A stretch of 64,000 bases of DNA from Actinomycetales bacterium (GCA_016710645.1 JADJVI010000056.1:1388-65387), one strand, 5' to 3'. Shown: positions 45,167-55,866, numbered from the stretch's first letter. Notes: generated by a model from the letters alone, not told the origin. Numbers and translations are program-made.

Positions 45167-45189
45167 CCCCGAGCTTGAGCGAGCCGCGC

Positions 45190-45222
45190 GGCATCACCGC
45201 GGCATCACCGCGGCATCACCGC
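45190..45222. repeat. 11-bp tandem repeat x3 (GGCATCACCGC)
   Basis: Read directly. The unit is not a multiple of 3, and the repeat is intergenic. Confidence 0.7.
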
Positions 45223-45270
45223 GGGGTCGCAGCGGGCCGTCGTGGTCAGAGATCGCCGCGAGGTGACATC

Positions 45271-45412
45271 CGCGAGCCTGCGAGCGGAGGGCGTGGTGGG
45301 TCCTACGGCCTGCGCGAGCCTGCGAGCGGAGGGCGTGGTGGGTCCTACGGCCACCGCGAGCGCCAGCGAGCGGAGGGCGTGGTGGGTCCTACGGCCTGCG
45401 CGAGCCTGCGAG
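45271..45412. repeat. three tandem 42-44-bp units, each reproducing the 3' acceptor/T-arm end of the adjacent tRNA-Ser plus its 14-nt 3' flank
   Basis: CGCGAGCCTGCGAGCGGAGGGCGTGGTGGGTCCTACGGCC(TG/AC) at 45271, 45313 and 45355 (variant). A fourth copy continues into the genuine tRNA (…GCGAGCGGAGGGCGTGGGATTCGAACCC). Confidence 0.75.
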
Positions 45413-45498
45413 CGGAGGGCGTGGGATTCGAACCCACGATGCCGTTGCCGACATAGCGGTTTTCAAGACCGCCGCACTAGGCCTCTATGCGAGCCCTC
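45413..45498 (-). tRNA. tRNA-Ser (anticodon TGA)
   Basis: The reverse complement GGAGGGCTCGCATAGAGGCCTAGTGCGGCGGTCTTGAAAACCGCTATGTCGGCAACGGCATCGTGGGTTCGAATCCCACGCCCTCCG has a long variable arm and anticodon loop CTTGAAA. Confidence 0.85.
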
Positions 45499-45668
45499 CA
45501 ACAACGAGCCATCGTAGGCCAGCCGCCCCGCCGACACGTCCGCGCGAGAAGGTCGCGCACTCCGTGCATCACGCGATGTATCAGGACAGACCCGTCAAAC
45601 CTCCTGACAGGTGACGCACCCGGCCCTAGGCTCGCCCTCAGGCCACGCATCCCCCTGTGAGGACCGAC

Positions 45669-47414
45669 ATGACGCCCTTCCCCCCGTTCGACCGCACCCA
45701 CCTCCCCGCCGACCGGACGCTGGACCCGACGCAGGACCCGACGCAGGACCCGACGCAGGACCGGAAGCAAGACCGGGCCCAGGATTCAGCCGCCCATGAG
45801 CGAGCAGCCCAATTCCAGGCTGCGCGGCAGCGCGAGTTCGCCACGACGCCGCCGATCGTCGTCGACCCGGGCACGGCCGCTCGATATGGCGCGCGCGTCC
45901 TGGACCCCGTCACCGCGATGCGCCTCCCAGGGGGCGGCGCACCGTCGCCGACGGTCTACGTGGGCGAGCGGCTGCTGGCTCAGAGCAACCTGAGGATGAC
46001 CGCGCCCGGCGACGCGGTGGACGAGCTGTCTCAGGTCGCCGCCAAGCTGGGCGTCACCCTCGAGCCGGTCGGCGCCCCTCCCCCGACCGACAAGGACCTC
46101 GGCGACGCCCAATCACCCGTCGCCGAGCTCATCGCCCGCCACTGGGTGCAGGGCGTGCAGATCAAGCCCACCGCAGAGAACGCCTCCTTCGCCGTCGATG
46201 CCTGGCCGGTGCTGCGCGGCCTGCAGGACAACTCGCGCGACGCGGCCAAGCCGCTCGCCCTCGACCACCTGCTCACCACCGCCCCTTACTGGGCGGGCAC
46301 CCCCTATTGGGCCGGGACCCCCTACTGGGCGGGCACTCCCTACTGGGCGGGCACGCCCTATTGGGCCGGCACCGGCGCGGGCGCGGCGGAATACGCCTAC
46401 CCCGGATCCGGCGGGCGTGCACCCGTGCACGTCGTCCTGCCCGACCCCGCACTCAGGGCGCGCAAGGTCGACCGGCGCCCCGTCGTCGCCGTCCCCGACA
46501 CCGGGCTCGGCGCCCACCCATGGTTCGAACCAGGCGGCAGCGCGACCGCGGAGGTGACCTTCAACGGCATACTCCTGGGCATCCACGGGCCGGCGGGCGT
46601 CGACTACCCCGCGAACCCGACCAACCCCCTCGACCCGGTCATCCGGCCCGACACCGGCCACGGCACCTTCATCTCGGGGCTGATCCGCCAGCTCTGCCCC
46701 GAGGCCGACATCCTCGCGATCCCGGTCATGCACGACGACGGTGTGGTGCCCGAGAGCGTCCTCATGAACACCCTCACGCTGCTGCTCGCCCGCCACCTCG
46801 AAGCTCTGCTCACCGGCAACCCCGACGGGCTCATCGACGTGCTGTCGCTCTCGCTCGGCTACTACCACGAGAACCCCGGCGACCAACTGACCGACGCCCC
46901 GCTCGGCGCCCTGCTGCGCGACTTCGGGCGGCTCGGGGTCGCGGTGGTCTGCGCGGCGGGCAATGCGACGACGATCGCCCCGATGTACCCCGCGGCGTTC
47001 GCCTCCCAAGTCACCGGCTTCGCACCCGACCAGGCCCCGCTGGCCAGCGTCGGCGCGTTCAATCCGGACGGCTCCACGGTCGCCTACTTCTCCAACGCCG
47101 GCACCTGGGTCTCCACCCACCGCCCGGGCAGTTCGCTGGTCAGCACCTTCCCGACCGACGTCACCGCCGCGGCGCAGGCCTCGGAACGGATCGAGTATGC
47201 CGGCCGCCCCCGGTCCACCCCGGACCCGGACGACTACACGAGCGGGTTCTGCACGTGGAGTGGCACGTCGTTCGCCGCGCCGGTCCTCGCGGGCCAGATC
47301 GCGGCAGCGCTCGCCGCGGATCCCGCCATCGGCAAGGTCGATAGGGACGCCGCGGTCGCCCGCGCCCGGGCCGCGATGGCGGCGACGATCGCGGAATGGC
47401 AGGGCCAGCTATGA
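45669..47414 (+). CDS. S8 (subtilisin-like) serine peptidase without signal peptide; N-terminal DPTQ x3 and PYWAGT x5 repeats
   Basis: Track ORF 45657..47414 starts at a GTG; the ATG at 45669 has AGGA upstream. Catalytic triad contexts VAVPDTG, DTGHGTF, WSGTSFAAP. No hydrophobic N-terminus. Confidence 0.85.
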   Translation: MTPFPPFDRTHLPADRTLDPTQDPTQDPTQDRKQDRAQDSAAHERAAQFQAARQREFATTPPIVVDPGTAARYGARVLDPVTAMRLPGGGAPSPTVYVGERLLAQSNLRMTAPGDAVDELSQVAAKLGVTLEPVGAPPPTDKDLGDAQSPVAELIARHWVQGVQIKPTAENASFAVDAWPVLRGLQDNSRDAAKPLALDHLLTTAPYWAGTPYWAGTPYWAGTPYWAGTPYWAGTGAGAAEYAYPGSGGRAPVHVVLPDPALRARKVDRRPVVAVPDTGLGAHPWFEPGGSATAEVTFNGILLGIHGPAGVDYPANPTNPLDPVIRPDTGHGTFISGLIRQLCPEADILAIPVMHDDGVVPESVLMNTLTLLLARHLEALLTGNPDGLIDVLSLSLGYYHENPGDQLTDAPLGALLRDFGRLGVAVVCAAGNATTIAPMYPAAFASQVTGFAPDQAPLASVGAFNPDGSTVAYFSNAGTWVSTHRPGSSLVSTFPTDVTAAAQASERIEYAGRPRSTPDPDDYTSGFCTWSGTSFAAPVLAGQIAAALAADPAIGKVDRDAAVARARAAMAATIAEWQGQL

Positions 47415-48049
47415 GCATCGACTCCCCCACAGCCGGTATGCCGTCGGCCGACGCCGCGCCGACGCTCACCCGGCGCGCGGCCTTGGCGTTCACGGCATAC
47501 CAGGCCGGAGATCGTGACCGGATGAGCGAACTCGTGGACCTGCTCACCCCCGTCCTCTGGCACACCGCGCGCGGGCAGCGCCTCGACACCGCTACCGCCG
47601 AGGACGTCGTGCAGACCGCGTGGATCCGCCTGGTCGAACACGCCGACGCCATCCAGGACCCGCAAGCCGTGCTCGGCTGGCTGGTGACGACCGTGCGCCG
47701 GGAGGCGTGGCGGCTGCTGCGGCAGTCCGGCCGCGCGGTGCCGACCGACGAAGTGCCCGAGGAGTCGGCGGGAGCCCCGGTCGCGCCCTCGGGTGACGGC
47801 AGCACGATCGACCCGGCGCTGGTGGCGGTCCTGCACGAGGGCCAGCAGCAGCTCTGGCACCACGTCACCTCGCTGCCGCAGCGCTGCCAGGCGCTCTTGC
47901 GAGTCATCGCCTTCGTCGACCGCCCGGACTACGCCGCGCTCTCAGAAGCGCTCGGTATGCCGGTCGGCTCGATCGGTCCCACCCGCGGCCGCTGCCTGGC
48001 CAAGCTGCGTGCAGCCCTGCTCGCCGACCCCACCTGGAGCGCGTCATGA
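47411..48049 (+). CDS. ECF-type sigma-70 family RNA polymerase sigma factor
   Basis: ORF 47396..48049 trimmed to the MSIDSP ATG, which overlaps the S8 stop (ATGA). Region 2 AEDVVQTAWIRLV...VRREAWR; region 4 DYAALSEALGMPVGSIGPTRGRCLAKLR. Confidence 0.85.
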   Translation: MSIDSPTAGMPSADAAPTLTRRAALAFTAYQAGDRDRMSELVDLLTPVLWHTARGQRLDTATAEDVVQTAWIRLVEHADAIQDPQAVLGWLVTTVRREAWRLLRQSGRAVPTDEVPEESAGAPVAPSGDGSTIDPALVAVLHEGQQQLWHHVTSLPQRCQALLRVIAFVDRPDYAALSEALGMPVGSIGPTRGRCLAKLRAALLADPTWSAS

Positions 48050-48558
48050 CCCCCGACGAGTCGACCCTGGCCTCCGAGCCGCTCGACACCCTCGATGAGC
48101 AGGTGCTGCTCACGGTGCGCAATATGCACGCGCGCCTCGACCCGGTGCCCAGCGGACTCACCGACCGGATCAAGTTCGAGCTGACCCTGGCGGCTTTGCA
48201 CGCCGAGATCGCCGAGCTGCAGCGGGTGTCGCTCGCGGGAGTGCGGGCCGACGACACGGCATACGCGCCCACGCAGTCGGTGACTTTCACCAGCAGCCGG
48301 CTCAGCCTCATGGTGACGCTCACGGCACCGACCGACGACCCCGACCAGGCTCGCGAGGGCACCATCACCGTCGACGGGTGGGTCACCGTCGGCGGCACGG
48401 TCGTCGAGCTGCGCGTCGGCAACCTCAGCCTGACCGTCACGGCTGACGAACACGGTCGCTTCGTCATCGAGGACGTGCCGCACGGCCCGGGCCGGTTCGT
48501 GCTGCACCCGCCCGGCGAGGGCGAGCGTCCGATCATCACCCCCACCGTGGAGCTGTAG
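48046..48558 (+). CDS. hypothetical soluble protein, candidate anti-sigma/adaptor (C-terminal beta-sandwich-like GRFVIEDVPHGPGRFVL)
   Basis: 170 aa. ATGA overlap with the sigma gene. No TM and no zf-HC2 motif. Confidence 0.5.
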   Translation: MTPDESTLASEPLDTLDEQVLLTVRNMHARLDPVPSGLTDRIKFELTLAALHAEIAELQRVSLAGVRADDTAYAPTQSVTFTSSRLSLMVTLTAPTDDPDQAREGTITVDGWVTVGGTVVELRVGNLSLTVTADEHGRFVIEDVPHGPGRFVLHPPGEGERPIITPTVEL

Positions 48559-48571
48559 CGAGCGCAATGGC

Positions 48572-51301
48572 ATGAGTCGGGGACAGCGGGGCACCGACCT
48601 GGACGACACGCTCGACCAGGTCGATGCTCTGTATGCCCAAGCTCAGGAGGCCATTGGGGCATACAGCCCCGAGACGGCAGCCGGGCTGCTCGACCGCGCC
48701 GATGCCGTCCTGGCCGCCAGCCTCGGCGACGACGCGACGCCGCGGGCCCGCGAATTGCGCGCGCGGATCCTGCTCACCCGCAGCTGGACAGCCTTCGAAC
48801 TGCACGGGCAGGCGGTCGGACTCGACGCCCTCGACGTCGCCATCGCCGAAGCCACCGCAATCGAACGACTCGACCTGCTCGCCCTGTGTCATATGCAGGC
48901 TGCCGCGATGTTGGGGCGTAGTGGTGACCTCACCGGCTCGCTCGCGTGGATGACGCGCGCCGCCGCCCATGCCGGGTTGCTGCCGTTGCGCGACCAGGCC
49001 CGCCTGTCGCTCAATCGCGGCACGCTGGCTTCGCGGCTCATGGAGTTGGGCACCGCCGACGCCGAGCTCGAGCGGGCGGCCACCCTCGCCCGGTCGGTCG
49101 GCGAGCCCGTTTACGAGTTCATGGCGCTGCACAACCGCGGCTATGTGCAGTACCTCCGGGGCGACCTCCCCGCGGCCTTGGCGCTGATGACCCGGGCCGA
49201 CGCCATGACCGTCGAGGTCAACCGCAGCATCTCCGAACTCGACCGCGCCAGAGTCCTCCTGGAAGCCGGCCTGCACGACGACGCCGCCCACTCGCTGCGC
49301 CGGGCCCACGACCTCGCGCTCGCCGAGGCCACCGGTCAGGACCTGGCCGAGATCGAACTCGACCAGGCCCGCACCGCCCTCCTGCTCGGAGATGCCGAAC
49401 GCGCCGCACAGGCCGCGGCCCTCGCGCGTCGGCACTTCCGGGAGCGCGCCGCGGGTCCGTGGCGGCGGCAGGCTCACCTCGTCGAGCTGGAAGCGAGGGC
49501 GTATGCCGGTCGCACGCCGCTCGCAACCGTCCGGCTGGCCGAGGGGCTGGCTCAGATCGCCGCCCACCACGGCGAGCACGACGTGGCAGTGCGTGCCCAG
49601 CTCCTCGTCGCCGACGTGCTGAGCCACGCCACGGCCCTCTCGGGAGCGGCGGACGAGGTCGGCGACGGTGAGCGAGAACGGGCCCAGACGGCATACCGGG
49701 CGGCAAGCCCGCTGCGACGGTCGGCGTCCCTCGCCACGCGATTGCACGTGCGCTACGTCGGCGCCCGGCTCGCCCTGCCCCGTGACCCCCACCGCGCCTC
49801 GCGGCTGCTGCGGAACGCTGCGGAAGACCTCGCCGCCGCCACGGCCCGCGCGTCCAGCCTCGACCTGCGCACGGCCCTGGCGGTCCACAGCGGGCGGCTT
49901 TCCGAACTCGACCTCGACCTAGCGATGGCGACCGGGGCTGCAGCGTCGGTCTTCGCCCGCACCGAGCGCTGGCGAGCCGTGTCCGAACGTGTCCCCCTCG
50001 TGCGCCCACCCCGCGATCCCCGAGCGGCGGCCCTGCTCACCCAACTGCGCAAGGTCCGCGAGGACCTGCGAGGAGCCCCGCCGCAGGCCCGCCCGACGTT
50101 GCGCGGCCAGGCTGCGGATCTCGAGCGACACCTGAGAGCGCTGGACTGGTCGGGTTCGTCTGCTGGTTCGGCTGCCGCCGCCGACACTGGGGCCACCGAA
50201 GGCGAGTGGGTCGTCACCTCCGCCGACGTCTCGACCTCCGGGTCGACCGCTGAGTCGACGACGACCGGCCGGGTGCTGCCGGTCAGCCATAGCGCCGCGC
50301 TGCAAGCCGTGCGCGAGCGCAAGGCGACGGTGGTCAGCTACTTCCTGCACCGGCATACCCTCTGCGCTTTGGTCCTCACCCCGCGCGGTTCGGCCGTGCT
50401 GCGGTTGGCCGACCGCGACACCGTCGCCGCGGCCACCCGCCGCGTCATCGCCGACGCCGAAGCCCTCGCCCTGCCGACCGCAGGCCCCATGCGCGCCGTG
50501 GTCGAGGGTTCGCTCCGCGAGAGTCTCGCGACGCTGGAACGGCTGGTCCTCGGCCCGATCGACGCCGACCGGCTCGTCGTCGTGCCGAACCGGCTGCTCA
50601 GTTCGCTGCCCTGGGGGATGCTGCCCAGCCGCCACGGCCGCCCAACAACCGTCGCACGCACGGTCACCCGCTGGGCTACGACGCCGCCGAGCCCGACCAC
50701 CGCGACGCAGACGACAACGACGACGACCAGGTATGCCGTGCGGCCGGGTCCGCTGCGCGTCACCGCGATCGCCGGGCCCGACCTTGAGCACGCCGACACC
50801 GAAGTCGAGCAGGTGGCCGCCATCTGGGGAGGCGAAGCCGTGCCGACGGCCGCCTCGAACGAACGCGCCCTCGACTCAGCCCTGCACTCCAGCGATCTGG
50901 TCCACCTGGCGGCACATGGGCGGCATCAGCGACAGAGCCCGCTCTTTTCGAGCGTTCGGCTGGGCGATGGGCCGGTCTTCGCCCACGAGCTGTCCGGGCC
51001 GCTCGCGACGACCCACGTCGTGCTCTCGGCGTGCGAGGTCGGCCGGGCGACGCCCCGCGCCGGCGACGAGGCCCTCGGGCTCACGGCCGCCCTGCTGGGC
51101 CTCGGGGTGCATACCGTCGTCGCGGCGACCACGCGCATCCCGGACGAGGTCGCGGCAGCCGCCATGACGGCATACCACCGGCAGTTGCGTTCTGGCCTGG
51201 ACGCAGCGGCCGCCCTCGCGGCCGCAGTTGAGCCCCTGCCGCTGGTAGCGCGGGCGTTCACCGTGTTCGGCACCGATTGGGCCGCGCCCGTCAGCCTTTA
51301 G
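48572..51301 (+). CDS. TPR-repeat + CHAT (caspase-like) protease domain protein
   Basis: 909 aa. The N-terminal ~450 aa are helical repeats. C-terminal CHAT with His in VHLAAHG and Cys in VVLSACEVG. Confidence 0.85.
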
Positions 51302-51960
51302 ATCCAGATGGCCGGGTGGTAGTCGAGCAATTCCTCGGGCGTAAGGCCCTCGACCTTGTGGCGCAGCTGGGCCGGGATGCCGACCGCGACCGCGCCCGCG
51401 GGCACGTCCTTGACGACGACCGAGTTGGCGCCGACCTGAGCGTCGTCACCGACCGTGATCGGGCCGAGGATCTTGGCGCCGGCGCCGACGGTCACCCGAT
51501 TGCCGAGGGTGGGGTGGCGCTTGGTCTTGGCCAGCGAACGCCCACCCAGCGTGACCCCGTGGTAGAGCATGACGTCGTCGCCGATCTCGGCGGTCTCGCC
51601 GATGACGACCCCCATCCCGTGATCGATGAAGAAGCGCTGCCCGATCGTCGCGCCCGGGTGGATCTCGACGCCGGTCGCCGCGCGCACCACCTGAGAGATG
51701 AGGCGGGCGAGCAGTTTGCCGCCGGGACGCGCCCAGATGCGGTGCGCCACCCGGTAGGCCCAGATCGCGTGCAGCCCCGAGCTGGCCAGGAACATCTCCA
51801 CCCGCGAGTGCGCGGCGGGGTCGCGGCCCATCGCGGCGTCGATGTCCTCGCGGACATGCCGGTATGCCGCCGCGAGCTGCCGCATGACCCCTGGCCGGGC
51901 GGCGGGGGCGTGCGTCTTGGCTGGGCCCGACTGCAGCGCAGCGGGAGCGATCCAAGCCAT
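51298..51960 (-). CDS. cysE: serine O-acetyltransferase
   Basis: Hexapeptide-repeat C-terminus ([31 protein letters not shown]...[22 protein letters not shown]). The stop overlaps the convergent CHAT stop by 4 nt. An alternative start is at 51885. Confidence 0.85.
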
Positions 51961-52029
51961 CGGATTCCTTCTCTCAGAAGCCGATTCGTCCAGGCGGGCG
52001 AGTCGGGTACCTCACCGGTGTTGCGGGAT

Positions 52030-53832: not shown

Positions 53833-55525
53833 ATGACGACGCTCGCTCTCGACCCGCAACCACTCGGCGGTATGCCGTGTGGTGGTCGGTTGGGTGGCGC
53901 GTCGGAGGGGCCGTCGGTGGCGGGGGTTTCGACCACGGTGGTGCATGCGACCTGCGATCAGATCCTGGCCCGACTGTCGTCTCCTGAGGCCGGTGTGGTC
54001 GTGTCGAGCGTGGACGTGCAGGAAGTGGATCGGCTCGCTCGTCGGGTGGAGGCGGTGCGGTTGGCGTTGGTCGCTGCAGCTGATCGGCAGCAGGTGCATC
54101 GGCGGTGTGGGCATTCCTCGACGTCGGCGTGGGTGGCCAGCGCGACGCGTTCTGGGGGTGCTGCGGCGGCTCGGGATGTGGCATTGGCGACGGCGTTGGC
54201 TGATGGGTTGGACCGCACCCGGGTGGCGTTCGAGGCTGGTGAGGTCTCTCGCTCGAACGCGGGGATCATCGCCAGGACCATGGGCAAGTTGCCCGAGACG
54301 ACCACGGTGGTGGATCGGGAGCGGGTCGAGTCGGCGTTGGTGCGGGATGCTCGCCGGTTGGACCCGGGCCGGTTGGATCGGGCGGCGAAGCTGGCGTTGG
54401 CTGCGGCGGAGAAGTCGGCGGCCGAGGTGGCCGATCACCTTGAGCAACAACTGGTGGATGAGGAGCGTCGGGCCTACCGGTTGGCGACGGTGACCATGCA
54501 GGACCTGGGGGATGGCACGACGAAGTTGGCGGCGACGTTGCCGACGCCAGCCGCGAAGATGTTGGGCAAGGTGTTGCAGTCGATGACCGCGCCTCGGCGT
54601 GACCATCTGCGCAAGGCTGCCGAGAAGGCGTTGGCGGACGGGCAAGCCCCTGCCGGCTGCCTGGACGACGGCTCCGTGGCTGCTGACTTGTTGAGCGCCA
54701 CGGGCACGCACGAGCACCCGTCGTTCGGTGCCGGTTCGCATGGCACGTCTGGCACTGGTGCCCACCCGCAGTTCGGCGCCGGCGTGAGGGGCACGGCCGG
54801 CGCGAAGGGGCGCATGGCAGCCGACGGTCGGGCGCCGTCCGGCACAAGCGCGATGCCTGCCAGCGGCGCCAGCGGACACCGGATCGAGGGTCGGAACGCG
54901 GACTGGGCCGACATTGACTGGGCTCACCGTCGTGGCCGGGCGTTGACCGAGTTGATCGAGCACCTAGACACGGAGAAGCTGACCGGGAAGGTCGCCTCCA
55001 CCGTCATCATCACCATGACCGCTGAGCAAGTGATGGGCGCCGCGAAAGCCGCCAAACTCCAGCAGACCATCCACGAGGCGACCGGGACGCTGATCGACAT
55101 GGCTCCGAGTTCCGGGGCCGCGACCACCGACACCGGGGTGTTGATCTCCACGAGTGCCGCGCGGCGGATCGCCTGCAATGCCGGGATCCTGCCGGTCGTG
55201 TTGGGCGGACCCGGACACGTCCTGGACGTCGGCCGACAAGAACGGTTCTTCACCGAGCACCAACGGACAGCCCTGGCGACGATCTACGAAACCTGCGCGG
55301 CAGAAGACTGCGACCGACCCTACGCATGGTCCGAGTTGCATCACGAGGACCCGTGGTCCAAGGGCGGATTGACCGACCTCGACCGAGCCGATCCCGCTGT
55401 GCGGCTACCACCACCGCAAGATCCACGACCCCGCCTACCACCACGAGATCACCCGAGACGGAGACACGGACGGGCGAGGTCAGGGGCATGGGGCGAAGAG
55501 CGTCCACTTCCAGCTGCGCACCTAG
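53833..55525 (+). pseudogene. DUF222 + HNH endonuclease (13E12-repeat-like family), frameshifted inside the HNH motif
   Basis: ORF 53833..55629 reads ...ELHHEDPWSKGGLTDLDRA, then goes out of frame. Shifting one frame at ~55387-55390 gives IPLCGYHHRKIHDPAYHHEITRDG...VHFQLRT*, the canonical end of this family. Confidence 0.75.
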
Positions 55526-55614
55526 CCACCCAAGGGCGAAGCCCGGCCACTCAGGGGCGGAGACCGTCCACTTCCAGCTGCGCACCTAGCCACCCACGGG
55601 CGAAGTCTGGCCAC
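55501..55614. repeat. 50-bp unit repeated with a 64-bp period at the 3' end of the HNH pseudogene
   Basis: CGTCCACTTCCAGCTGCGCACCTAGCCACCCA(A/C)GGGCGAAG(CC/TC)(C/T)GGCCAC at 55501-55550 and 55565-55614. Confidence 0.7.
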
Positions 55615-55866
55615 CCGGCTTCCGACTAGGCAGAACGTGCACCCCGACTCAAGTTCCGCCTAGCGGCGTGGTCCATGGCACGGCATACCTCGTCCCCTGC
55701 GGCGAGGTAGCGATAGGGGCTGCTACGCGACCCTGCTCACAGCCGAATTCGGCACCTCGCGGGGCACGCGGGCGAGGAACCAGCCGCCGGGCGGCGGCCA
55801 TTCGGCCGGAGCGGCCGAAAATAGCCCTCGACGTGGACCAGGGCGGCGTCGACGCCGAGCTCAGGC
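55611..55866. repeat. diverged (~80% by eye) direct copy of the 56880-57160 segment, including a dead copy of the reductase gene 3' end
   Basis: Shared strings CCGGCTTCCG(AC/GT)TAGGCAGAACGTGC and GGGCGGCGGCCATTCGGCCGGAGCGGCCG…GTAGCCCTCGACGTGGACCAGG. The two copies bracket the GNAT pseudogene. Confidence 0.65.

Follow-up and report, generated by a model that had tools for sequence, protein, structure and literature searches.

A conserved actinomycete gene cassette joins a predicted ECF sigma factor and its candidate anti-sigma factor to a subtilase-like pro-enzyme and a TPR-CHAT protease

In a stretch of DNA from an Actinomycetales bacterium (GCA_016710645.1, JADJVI010000056.1:1388-65387; 64,000 nucleotides, here called the window), we analyzed a compact cassette of four plus-strand genes. 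They encode an S8 subtilase, a sigma factor of the extracytoplasmic function (ECF) type, a small protein of 170 residues and a CHAT protease with tetratricopeptide repeats (TPR) (Table 1). An initial annotation of the window had described four genes joined by two ATGA overlaps and a 13-nt gap, and this layout was confirmed throughout. Read directly from the sequence, the S8 stop and the sigma start share ATGA at 47411, and the sigma stop and the small-protein start share ATGA at 48046. The small-protein stop TAG lies at 48556-48558, and the CHAT gene starts 13 nt later with the ATG at 48572. The S8 start codon, ATG at 45669, has GAGGA 6 nt on its 5' side and is kept in the two closest relatives. 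Third-position GC contents of 0.86-0.92 in the four open reading frames fit genuine genes in a genome of about 70% GC. Inside the cluster, we detected neither a sigma-70-type promoter nor a site resembling an intrinsic terminator. Because such internal signals are missing and the gene overlaps are conserved, the four genes are predicted to form a single operon. A signal-peptide-like or membrane-spanning hydrophobic stretch was found in none of the four proteins (Kyte-Doolittle maximum within the first 50 residues below 1), which for S8 agrees with the earlier description of a subtilase without signal peptide. The motifs listed there (VPDTG, GHGTF, SGTSFAAP, HLAAHG and LSACE) were also found in the S8 and CHAT translations, as were the repeats DPTQ x3 and PYWAGT x5 in S8.

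Table 1. Genes, putative promoter and protein features of the cassette, in window coordinates unless residues are given
Feature	Position	Strand	Length	Details
Putative cognate ECF promoter	45578-45605	+		-35-like GTATCAG 45578-45584, 16-nt spacer, -10-like CTCCT 45601-45605
S8 subtilase gene	45669-47414	+	581 aa	Pfam Peptidase_S8, E = 6e-16
PYWAGT x5 tandem array	46284-46373	+		18-nt period; prodomain/catalytic junction; disordered in model
ECF sigma factor gene	47411-48049	+	212 aa	Sigma70_r2, E = 2.7e-10
Small-protein gene	48046-48558	+	170 aa	Sole match a sub-threshold CarboxypepD_reg
Small-protein layout				Helices at residues 15-31 and 38-64; low-confidence disordered linker 65-76; seven-strand Ig-like beta-sandwich 77-170 (AlphaFold2)
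TPR-CHAT protease gene	48572-51301	+	909 aa	CHAT, E = 1.3e-29; weak TPR_12
TPR-CHAT protein layout	CHAT ~50519-51226			Helical-repeat N-terminal part of ~640 aa; CHAT at residues 650-885; H782/C821

For comparison, we used the neighborhoods of homologues together with 59 loci from species-representative genomes. The order S8, sigma factor, small protein, CHAT was present in 46 loci; more distant cassettes occurred in Nonomuraea gerenzanensis, Actinopolymorpha alba and an Actinocrinis metagenome-assembled genome (MAG). Overall, this order is found at about 50 loci, which represent six actinomycete orders. Synteny in other genomes was one of the points on which the initial annotation had let its proposal stand or fall. 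Conservation of the catalytic residues was another, and these are likewise retained, with Asp, His, Asn and Ser of S8 conserved in 41-42 of 42 orthologues and the His/Cys dyad of CHAT in 44 of 44. Gene junctions are similarly tight elsewhere. A 4-nt overlap between S8 and sigma genes occurs in 30 of 39 loci, one of 4 or 1 nt between sigma and small-protein genes in 53 of 56, and the spacing between small-protein and CHAT genes ranges from -1 to +37 nt in most loci. Sigma and small-protein genes were adjacent in all 63 loci where this could be tested. The same order and overlaps in dozens of independent genomes exceed what chance would produce. Close homologues of the small protein or of S8 carry only hypothetical or generic annotation in Nonomuraea, Streptosporangium, Sphaerisporangium, Acrocarpospora, Microlunatus lacustris and Ornithinicoccus halotolerans. 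The MAG JPMR_maxbin.105 holds two four-gene cassettes (L006 and L015), one identical to that of the window and one whose small protein is just 56% identical; the MAG may thus have a second, paralogous copy, or its bin may be mixed.

The gene content varies in a particular way. About 13 loci, mainly from Propionibacteriaceae, have the sigma factor and the small protein only. In L025, sigma factor, small protein and CHAT are present and S8 is clearly absent; L018, from the same small clade, gave no S8 match, and the upstream sequence of L021 is too short to judge. S8 without CHAT was found in none of the loci, and the two are mostly present together or absent together. The two-gene locus L059 and its close relative L052, with four genes, have identical flanks; L059 lacks S8, and a remnant of 76 residues from the CHAT 3' end persists, from which we conclude that both proteases were deleted in place. 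In a tree of sigma factor and small protein, four-gene loci are found in all three main clades with two-gene loci nested among them, so joint loss of S8 and CHAT happened several times. These distributions suggest that S8 and CHAT are mutually dependent, S8 on CHAT more than vice versa, and that the pair of sigma factor and small protein can function without either protease.

A search for an ECF-type promoter upstream of 45669, which the initial annotation had recommended, yielded GTATCAG-N16-CTCCT, ending 64 nt before the S8 ATG. It is the single match in the window, with a chance expectation of 0.02. The AT-rich word GTATCAG is present in 39 of 56 upstream regions, and the bipartite motif GTATCAG-N15/16-CTC[CT]T occurred in 58 instances, 56 of them with a spacer of 15-16 nt. 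Both the window and about 45 relatives carry it at the 5' end of the operon, which means before S8 if the locus has this gene and directly before the sigma gene in two- and three-gene loci; in about 800 kb of loci searched, all matches except one had this position. Such a placement points to an ECF operon autoregulated via a self-directed bipartite promoter, with S8 inside the unit. In the distant loci of Nonomuraea, Actinopolymorpha and Actinocrinis, the strict motif gave no match; as written, it is valid for the closer clades only.

About 20 relatives have the motif twice, the second copy being arranged back to back on the opposite strand. In Jatrophihabitantaceae and Pseudonocardiales, this divergent copy faces a minus-strand gene of the HopA1 family (PF17914; 240-330 residues), as seen in L002 (4747-5657), L024, L026, L029, L035, L036, L038, L043 and L063. 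The gene is retained even in L043, a two-gene locus, and is likely a regulon member in both groups. In L004 and L005 (721-5608), the divergent promoter faces genes for a trypsin/Nal1-like protease, an APH-type kinase, a HopA1-like and a LanC-like protein; L014 has the same first gene and no strict promoter match. The APH, HopA1-like and LanC-like proteins of L004 and L005 resemble a split class V lanthionine synthetase, and no precursor peptide was seen beside them. The window itself contains neither a divergent motif copy nor a HopA1-like gene.

The 212-residue protein reached 46.6 bits with the TIGR02937 sigma70-ECF model over residues 44-208 (cut-off 42.9), and its nearest solved relative is SigW (E = 7e-4). 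It is predicted to be an ECF-type (group IV) sigma-70 factor. As is typical for ECF factors, it has a conserved downstream partner, with which it would be co-transcribed, and a self-directed putative promoter. The main text of the ECF reclassification paper (PMC7826278) does not mention CHAT or subtilase contexts.

The source genome is a MAG of Dermatophilaceae, and MAG entries match the small protein, the partner of the sigma factor, with 99-100% identity. This protein has hundreds of homologues of uniform length. A profile search against 1.84 billion cluster representatives gave 1502 matches at E <= 1e-3, 149 of them at E <= 1e-30; almost all of the 150 best representatives have 155-180 residues, and we saw no systematic fusions. 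An apparent Rosetta-stone fusion of small protein and CHAT in L018 was discarded; a single nucleotide inserted into a TT run shortly before the stop codon accounts for it, and the genes are unfused in the two sister loci. AlphaFold2 modeled the small protein with a predicted local distance difference test (pLDDT) of 85, based on 26 homologues. The best-conserved stretch is helix 2 (TLxALHAEIAxL), and Arg67 in the linker is invariant within a G-[V/A]-R motif. Foldseek against the PDB returned generic beta-sandwich and Ig-like matches only, all with E > 0.01, and a profile search against PDB sequences returned none and hence nothing that would connect the protein with Csx30, RseA, RsrA-type or other solved anti-sigma factors. 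As initially annotated, the protein matches no anti-sigma family, and it does not resemble class I anti-sigma factors (ASD/zf-HC2), whose four-helix domain frequently bears an HxxxCxxC zinc motif: it gave no Pfam or NCBIfam match, contains no cysteine and has two helices instead of four. In the model, it nevertheless has the layout of a soluble anti-sigma factor. Always being paired with the sigma factor is what would be expected of an anti-sigma factor, and from this universal pairing, the overlapping genes and the architecture we regard the small protein as a candidate soluble anti-sigma factor of a new family.

The TPR-CHAT protein scored 19.3 bits with the Csx29 model NF041237, for which the cut-off is 300. 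As a single sequence, it found no match in the PDB; a profile built from 18 orthologues retrieved Csx29 chains at E ~1e-4 over only about 120 residues of the catalytic core. The N-terminal part of this profile weakly matched the TPR proteins APC5, RapJ and IFIT1. As these N-terminal matches are of TPR type only, a SAVED sensor domain is missing. The protein thus appears to be a distant CHAT relative outside the Csx29 family.

S8 has Asp, His and Ser in subtilisin order together with the oxyanion Asn, as in MEROPS family S8 (D277, H331, N432 and S534 in the numbering of the 581-residue protein). It consists of a variable acidic N-terminus with the three DPTQ copies, a prodomain-like domain at about 60-205, the hexapeptide array and the catalytic domain. 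In the AlphaFold2 model (predicted template modeling score 0.81), an alpha/beta N-domain at 60-205 with a pLDDT of about 90 is followed by a disordered segment at 207-256 and then by the catalytic domain. The N-domain matches no Pfam family. The best Foldseek matches were unprocessed pro-subtilisin E, pro-Tk-subtilisin and PCSK9 over 467-495 columns, compared with about 300 columns for mature subtilisins; the Foldseek subtilisin probability was 1.00. Since alignments with unprocessed pro-subtilisins are longer, the N-domain of about 145 residues appears to behave like a prodomain. S8 looks like a cytoplasmic pro-enzyme and, given this resemblance, probably needs activation. At its N-terminus, DPTQ/DRKQ repeats (45711-45774; 12-nt period, 5.3 copies) have low occupancy in orthologues; in contrast to the PYWAGT array, they seem specific to a lineage and free of constraint.

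The five PYWAGT copies of the window vary only at synonymous third positions (83% DNA matches in TRF). We surveyed 41 non-redundant S8-carrying loci, including the window, and found 3-12 perfectly identical hexapeptides at the same junction in 26 of them. There are 17 different units, most of them following P-[YFM]-x-x-G-[TSV] and a few deviating; examples are PYWAGT, PYWAGV, PYWVPT, PYTSGS, PFGHGS, PMVNGT and PYVNGS. Within the 26 arrays, 91 of 156 codon columns contain two or more codons, and the differences comprise no fewer than 105 synonymous and 0 non-synonymous ones. Restricting the count to perfect arrays partly dictates this zero; such arrays are nonetheless the majority state among S8 loci. 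The unit PYWVPT is retained in two well-separated clades, and in about one third of S8 orthologues, for example L002 and Nonomuraea, the array is imperfect or absent. Taken as a sequence pattern, the PYWAGT array thus appears to be a conserved, selected feature and not a peculiarity of one genome, and the pattern of selection is unusual in that copies are identical in protein, differ only synonymously and have lineage-specific units. Intracellular subtilisins bear an inhibitory [LVI]-[IFLV]-P-[YFH] motif (PMC6220982), which the S8 hexapeptides recall.

The surroundings of the cassette are of the housekeeping type. In the window, it is flanked by opposite-strand genes, with a dienelactone-hydrolase-like gene and tRNA-Ser(tga) upstream and cysE-like and PALP-family (cysK-like) genes downstream. 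Flanks are stable inside lineages and comprise cysE/cysK with tRNA-Ser, rplA/rplJ, or trpS. In L002 and L030, the entire cassette interrupts the otherwise highly conserved cluster of ribosomal protein genes, separating rplK-rplA from rplJ-rplL, and in L001, sampled on the downstream side only, rplL follows CHAT. Inheritance of the cassette looks vertical. The cassette region (46001-52000) has a GC content of 0.72-0.73, compared with 0.66-0.70 for most of the window, and Ala/Gly/Pro-rich proteins rather than a foreign origin may be the cause. The initial annotation had seen no CRISPR-Cas component, and indeed we found no CRISPR-like array within the 64 kb and no defense genes among the flanking open reading frames scanned. 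PADLOC 2.0 gave one meaningless subtilase match of 13.9 bits (E = 0.007) and zero for the other three proteins.

Two apparently mobile copies were rejected. A "plasmid" copy from Nonomuraea gerenzanensis (L065, NZ_LT559118.1) is really on an 11.85-Mb chromosome filed as a plasmid in PLSDB; this record has just 10 annotated features, so the cassette is unannotated there. A "phage" copy (L066, MT838002.1), a 7.5-kb sequence of 74% GC from human feces filed as 'UNVERIFIED: Bacteriophage sp.', holds the four-gene cassette and nothing phage-like that we could detect, and is most likely misfiled actinobacterial DNA. No genuine plasmid or phage copy was found. In Actinopolymorpha alba (L067, 9237-12495), four same-strand genes lie directly 3' of CHAT and encode, in order, a 113-residue protein, a 253-residue protein with CarboxypepD_reg, which is the fold type of the C-terminal half of the small protein, a Phage_sheath_1 and a T4_gp19 tube protein. 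The latter two belong to a contractile injection system; among the loci examined, such genes follow the cassette in this species only.

Several repeats were seen outside the cassette. At 45271-45424, a 42-nt unit is repeated 3.6 times (91% matches) beside tRNA-Ser(tga) (45412-45499, minus strand), and each copy bears the 3' end of the tRNA-Ser gene (cggagggcgtgg); the closest relative, L008, has one additional copy. These could be leftover attachment sites of integrations at the tRNA gene or a plain tandem duplication. A perfect 11-nt unit (CGCGGCATCAC) is repeated 3.5 times at 45187-45224, immediately beyond the upstream hydrolase-like gene. A DUF222-family gene (53833-55629), with a 64-nt unit present twice at its 3' end (55490-55614), is located downstream of the cysK-like gene.

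How might the four proteins work together? The initial annotation had proposed a protease-gated sigma switch. This agrees with the universal pairing of sigma factor and small protein, but gating cannot be the whole story, as pairs outlive the in-place deletion of the proteases. We tentatively favor an autoregulated sigma/anti-sigma pair with an added proteolytic input in which CHAT acts before S8, a reading that we consider plausible, if just short of probable. The 170-residue protein would be the anti-sigma factor and hold the sigma factor with its two N-terminal helices, with the beta-sandwich acting as a regulatory or handle domain. The pair would be transcribed from its own putative promoter, and both cytoplasmic proteases, co-transcribed with it, would most likely provide a two-step proteolytic input. 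TPR-CHAT would sense a signal via its repeat array and then cut the anti-sigma factor, possibly in the disordered linker around Arg67, and/or activate the S8 pro-enzyme, and S8 would finish removing the anti-sigma factor. The freed sigma factor would re-induce the entire operon in a positive feedback and, in relatives, also the divergent HopA1-like gene. Within this scheme, sigma binding by the small protein, cleavage of any kind, the sequence of CHAT before S8 and the kind of signal are all inferred. The order follows the asymmetry in gene content, S8 never occurring without CHAT; the zymogen-like S8, the tight gene coupling and three experimental precedents also argue for a proteolytic input, as do the intact catalytic residues and missing export signals of both proteases.

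Several observations weigh against this reading. The small protein is unlike any known anti-sigma domain. Its linker Arg and C-terminal tail are equally conserved in loci without proteases, hence neither is a specific mark of CHAT or S8 cleavage. About 13 species without both proteases keep the pair and the promoter, including the recent in-place deletion, so the proteases are not required for the pair to be useful. Moreover, in an autoregulated operon the proteases are also products of sigma activity, and a role as effectors fits equally.

This last point leads to the main rival view, that the proteases are outputs, which we regard as unlikely, if worth serious consideration. The pair would sense a signal itself, for example via the beta-sandwich, and induce S8 and TPR-CHAT as effectors that remodel or destroy cytoplasmic proteins; the HopA1-like gene of relatives would be a further effector. 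As the putative promoter would drive the full operon, both proteases would be regulon members by construction, its divergent copy in relatives would drive HopA1-like or trypsin-like/APH/HopA1/LanC genes, and the survival of the pair after protease loss fits as well. However, the tight translational coupling of S8 with sigma and of small protein with CHAT suggests proteins made in a fixed ratio, as in complex partners, and in every characterized association of CHAT with a sigma factor the protease acts on the regulator (PMC10028731, PMC11506125, bioRxiv 10.1101/2023.06.23.546230). The TPR sensor array and the zymogen-like S8 also resemble controlled signaling proteases and not bulk degraders. 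Quite improbable, in our view, is a peptide relay, in which pro-S8 would be a multi-copy precursor whose autoprocessing after P-[Y/F/M] frees lineage-specific hexapeptides inside the cell; these would bind the TPR array of CHAT and set its activity, thereby gating anti-sigma destruction in a Rap/NprR/PlcR-like manner. The 26 arrays, with their 3-12 identical copies, 17 lineage-specific units and at least 105 synonymous against 0 non-synonymous differences, lie at the prodomain/catalytic junction, as such a relay would have it. Furthermore, x-x-Pro-[Tyr/Phe/Met] fits the classical subtilisin substrate type (suc-AAPF-pNA), S8 never occurs without a TPR-CHAT gene, and RapJ is among the weak TPR matches. 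Yet the matches to Rap proteins are generic, roughly a third of S8 orthologues (L002 and Nonomuraea among them) have imperfect arrays or none, and the zero count owes something to the restriction to perfect arrays.

The initial annotation had framed the cassette as an abortive-infection or conflict system, with TPR-CHAT sensing infection and the proteases or the regulon killing or arresting the cell. CHAT proteases do occur with sigma factors in CRISPR types III-E and III-B and in a DdvA-controlled defense island (PMC10028731, bioRxiv 10.1101/2023.06.23.546230, PMC11506125), and the Actinopolymorpha alba cassette directly precedes sheath and tube genes of a contractile injection system. Nevertheless, this framing was not supported and appears very improbable: flanks are housekeeping genes and stable within lineages, PADLOC found nothing significant, the window has no CRISPR array, the scanned flanking open reading frames include no defense genes, and true plasmid or phage copies were not found. 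Hardly credible is, finally, a unit that regulates and processes a ribosomally made peptide natural product, with S8 as a LanP-like leader peptidase. The divergent set of L004 and L005 (and, for its first gene, L014), with trypsin-like protease, APH kinase, HopA1-like and LanC-like genes, would suit it, the latter trio being typical of class V lanthipeptide synthetases. But such genes are missing from the vicinity of the cassette in the window and in most loci, S8 lacks an export signal, and the hexapeptide units contain no Cys, some also no Ser or Thr.

Stand-alone TPR-CHAT proteases are common in bacteria, and almost nothing is known of them beyond CRISPR type III-E and DdvA. In the literature on CHAT with ECF factors or subtilases, on CarboxypepD_reg with anti-sigma factors and on stand-alone TPR-CHAT proteins, we found no paper describing the cassette, its small-protein family, its pro-S8 with hexapeptide arrays or its promoter. 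It could serve as a tractable model for these proteases, with a candidate substrate set for CHAT (the paired sigma factor, the new anti-sigma candidate and a second protease) and a defined promoter as read-out; cultured carriers are Nonomuraea gerenzanensis, Actinopolymorpha alba, Microlunatus lacustris and Ornithinicoccus halotolerans. If the favored reading is true, the small proteins would make up a new anti-sigma fold family of about 1500 sequence clusters, and the cassette an actinomycete protease cascade that controls transcription without CRISPR or cyclic-nucleotide input. A true peptide relay would mean intracellular peptide signaling that feeds into a caspase-like protease and an ECF sigma factor.

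The initial annotation drew a parallel to Craspase of type III-E CRISPR systems, in which Csx29 cleaves Csx30, the inhibitor of CASP-sigma (PMC10028731). The logic is indeed shared. Both loci place the gene for a cytoplasmic TPR-CHAT protease next to those for an ECF-type sigma factor and its inhibitor, here a candidate; in Craspase, cleavage is thought to relieve inhibition and the sigma factor autoregulates its own locus (PMC10028731), as may be the case here. The components themselves do not support the parallel, since CHAT falls outside the Csx29 family (19 bits against 300) and neither the sequence nor the predicted fold of the small protein relates it to Csx30. Cas7-11, a CRISPR array and Csx31 are missing, an S8 pro-enzyme is added, and the activating signal, unlike that of Craspase, cannot be target RNA. 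Outside type III-E, TPR-CHAT is tied to ECF sigma control in Myxococcus xanthus, where the anti-sigma factor DdvA carries a TPR-CHAT domain (PMC11506125). The His-Cys dyad is intact, as in our protein, and signal-induced cleavage is proposed to free the sigma factor DdvS (PMC11506125), which we likewise propose here. DdvA, however, is a single membrane protein that combines a zinc-binding anti-sigma domain with a transmembrane helix and a TPR-CHAT part in the periplasm (PMC11506125), whereas CHAT and the anti-sigma candidate of the cassette are separate and soluble, without zinc motif and transmembrane helix. DdvA has been called the only characterized anti-sigma factor with TPR-CHAT, and DdvA-like proteins were found only in Myxococcota and one Comamonas species (PMC11506125).

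Two proteases in one locus with a sigma factor are also found in the type III-B system of Haliangium ochraceum, in which SAVED-CHAT activates PCaspase, which in turn cuts PCc-sigma and the inhibitor PCi (bioRxiv 10.1101/2023.06.23.546230). There, the sensor is SAVED, which responds to cyclic oligoadenylate, and not TPR, and the second protease is a caspase and not a subtilase. That cascade is tied to CRISPR/CBASS and gives abortive infection, and we found no homology between its small proteins and those of the cassette. In RseA/DegS/RseP and CalpL-CalpT-CalpS, a dedicated protease destroys or clips the anti-sigma factor and thereby releases an ECF sigma factor, as proposed here (summarized in the papers cited above); these systems differ in using S1/PDZ, site-2 metallo- or Lon-SAVED proteases and in acting across a membrane or being driven by cyclic nucleotides. 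Regarding S8, an N-terminal segment would hold the pro-enzyme, with a Pro-aromatic motif at or in the active-site cleft, as it does in pro- and intracellular subtilisins (PMC6220982; PDB 3whi, 2e1p), and those with an inhibitory LIPY/F motif share the predicted intracellular location. Unlike them, S8 combines a prodomain-like domain of about 145 residues with 3-12 identical hexapeptides at the junction, has [TSV]-P-[YFM] across its units instead of [LVI]-[IFLV]-P-[YFH], and is encoded within a sigma operon. Protease-linked control of ECF sigma factors is thus already known; the novelty of the cassette lies in its composition, in the small-protein family as a candidate anti-sigma factor, in the predicted cytoplasmic pro-S8 with its selected hexapeptide arrays, and in the promoter.

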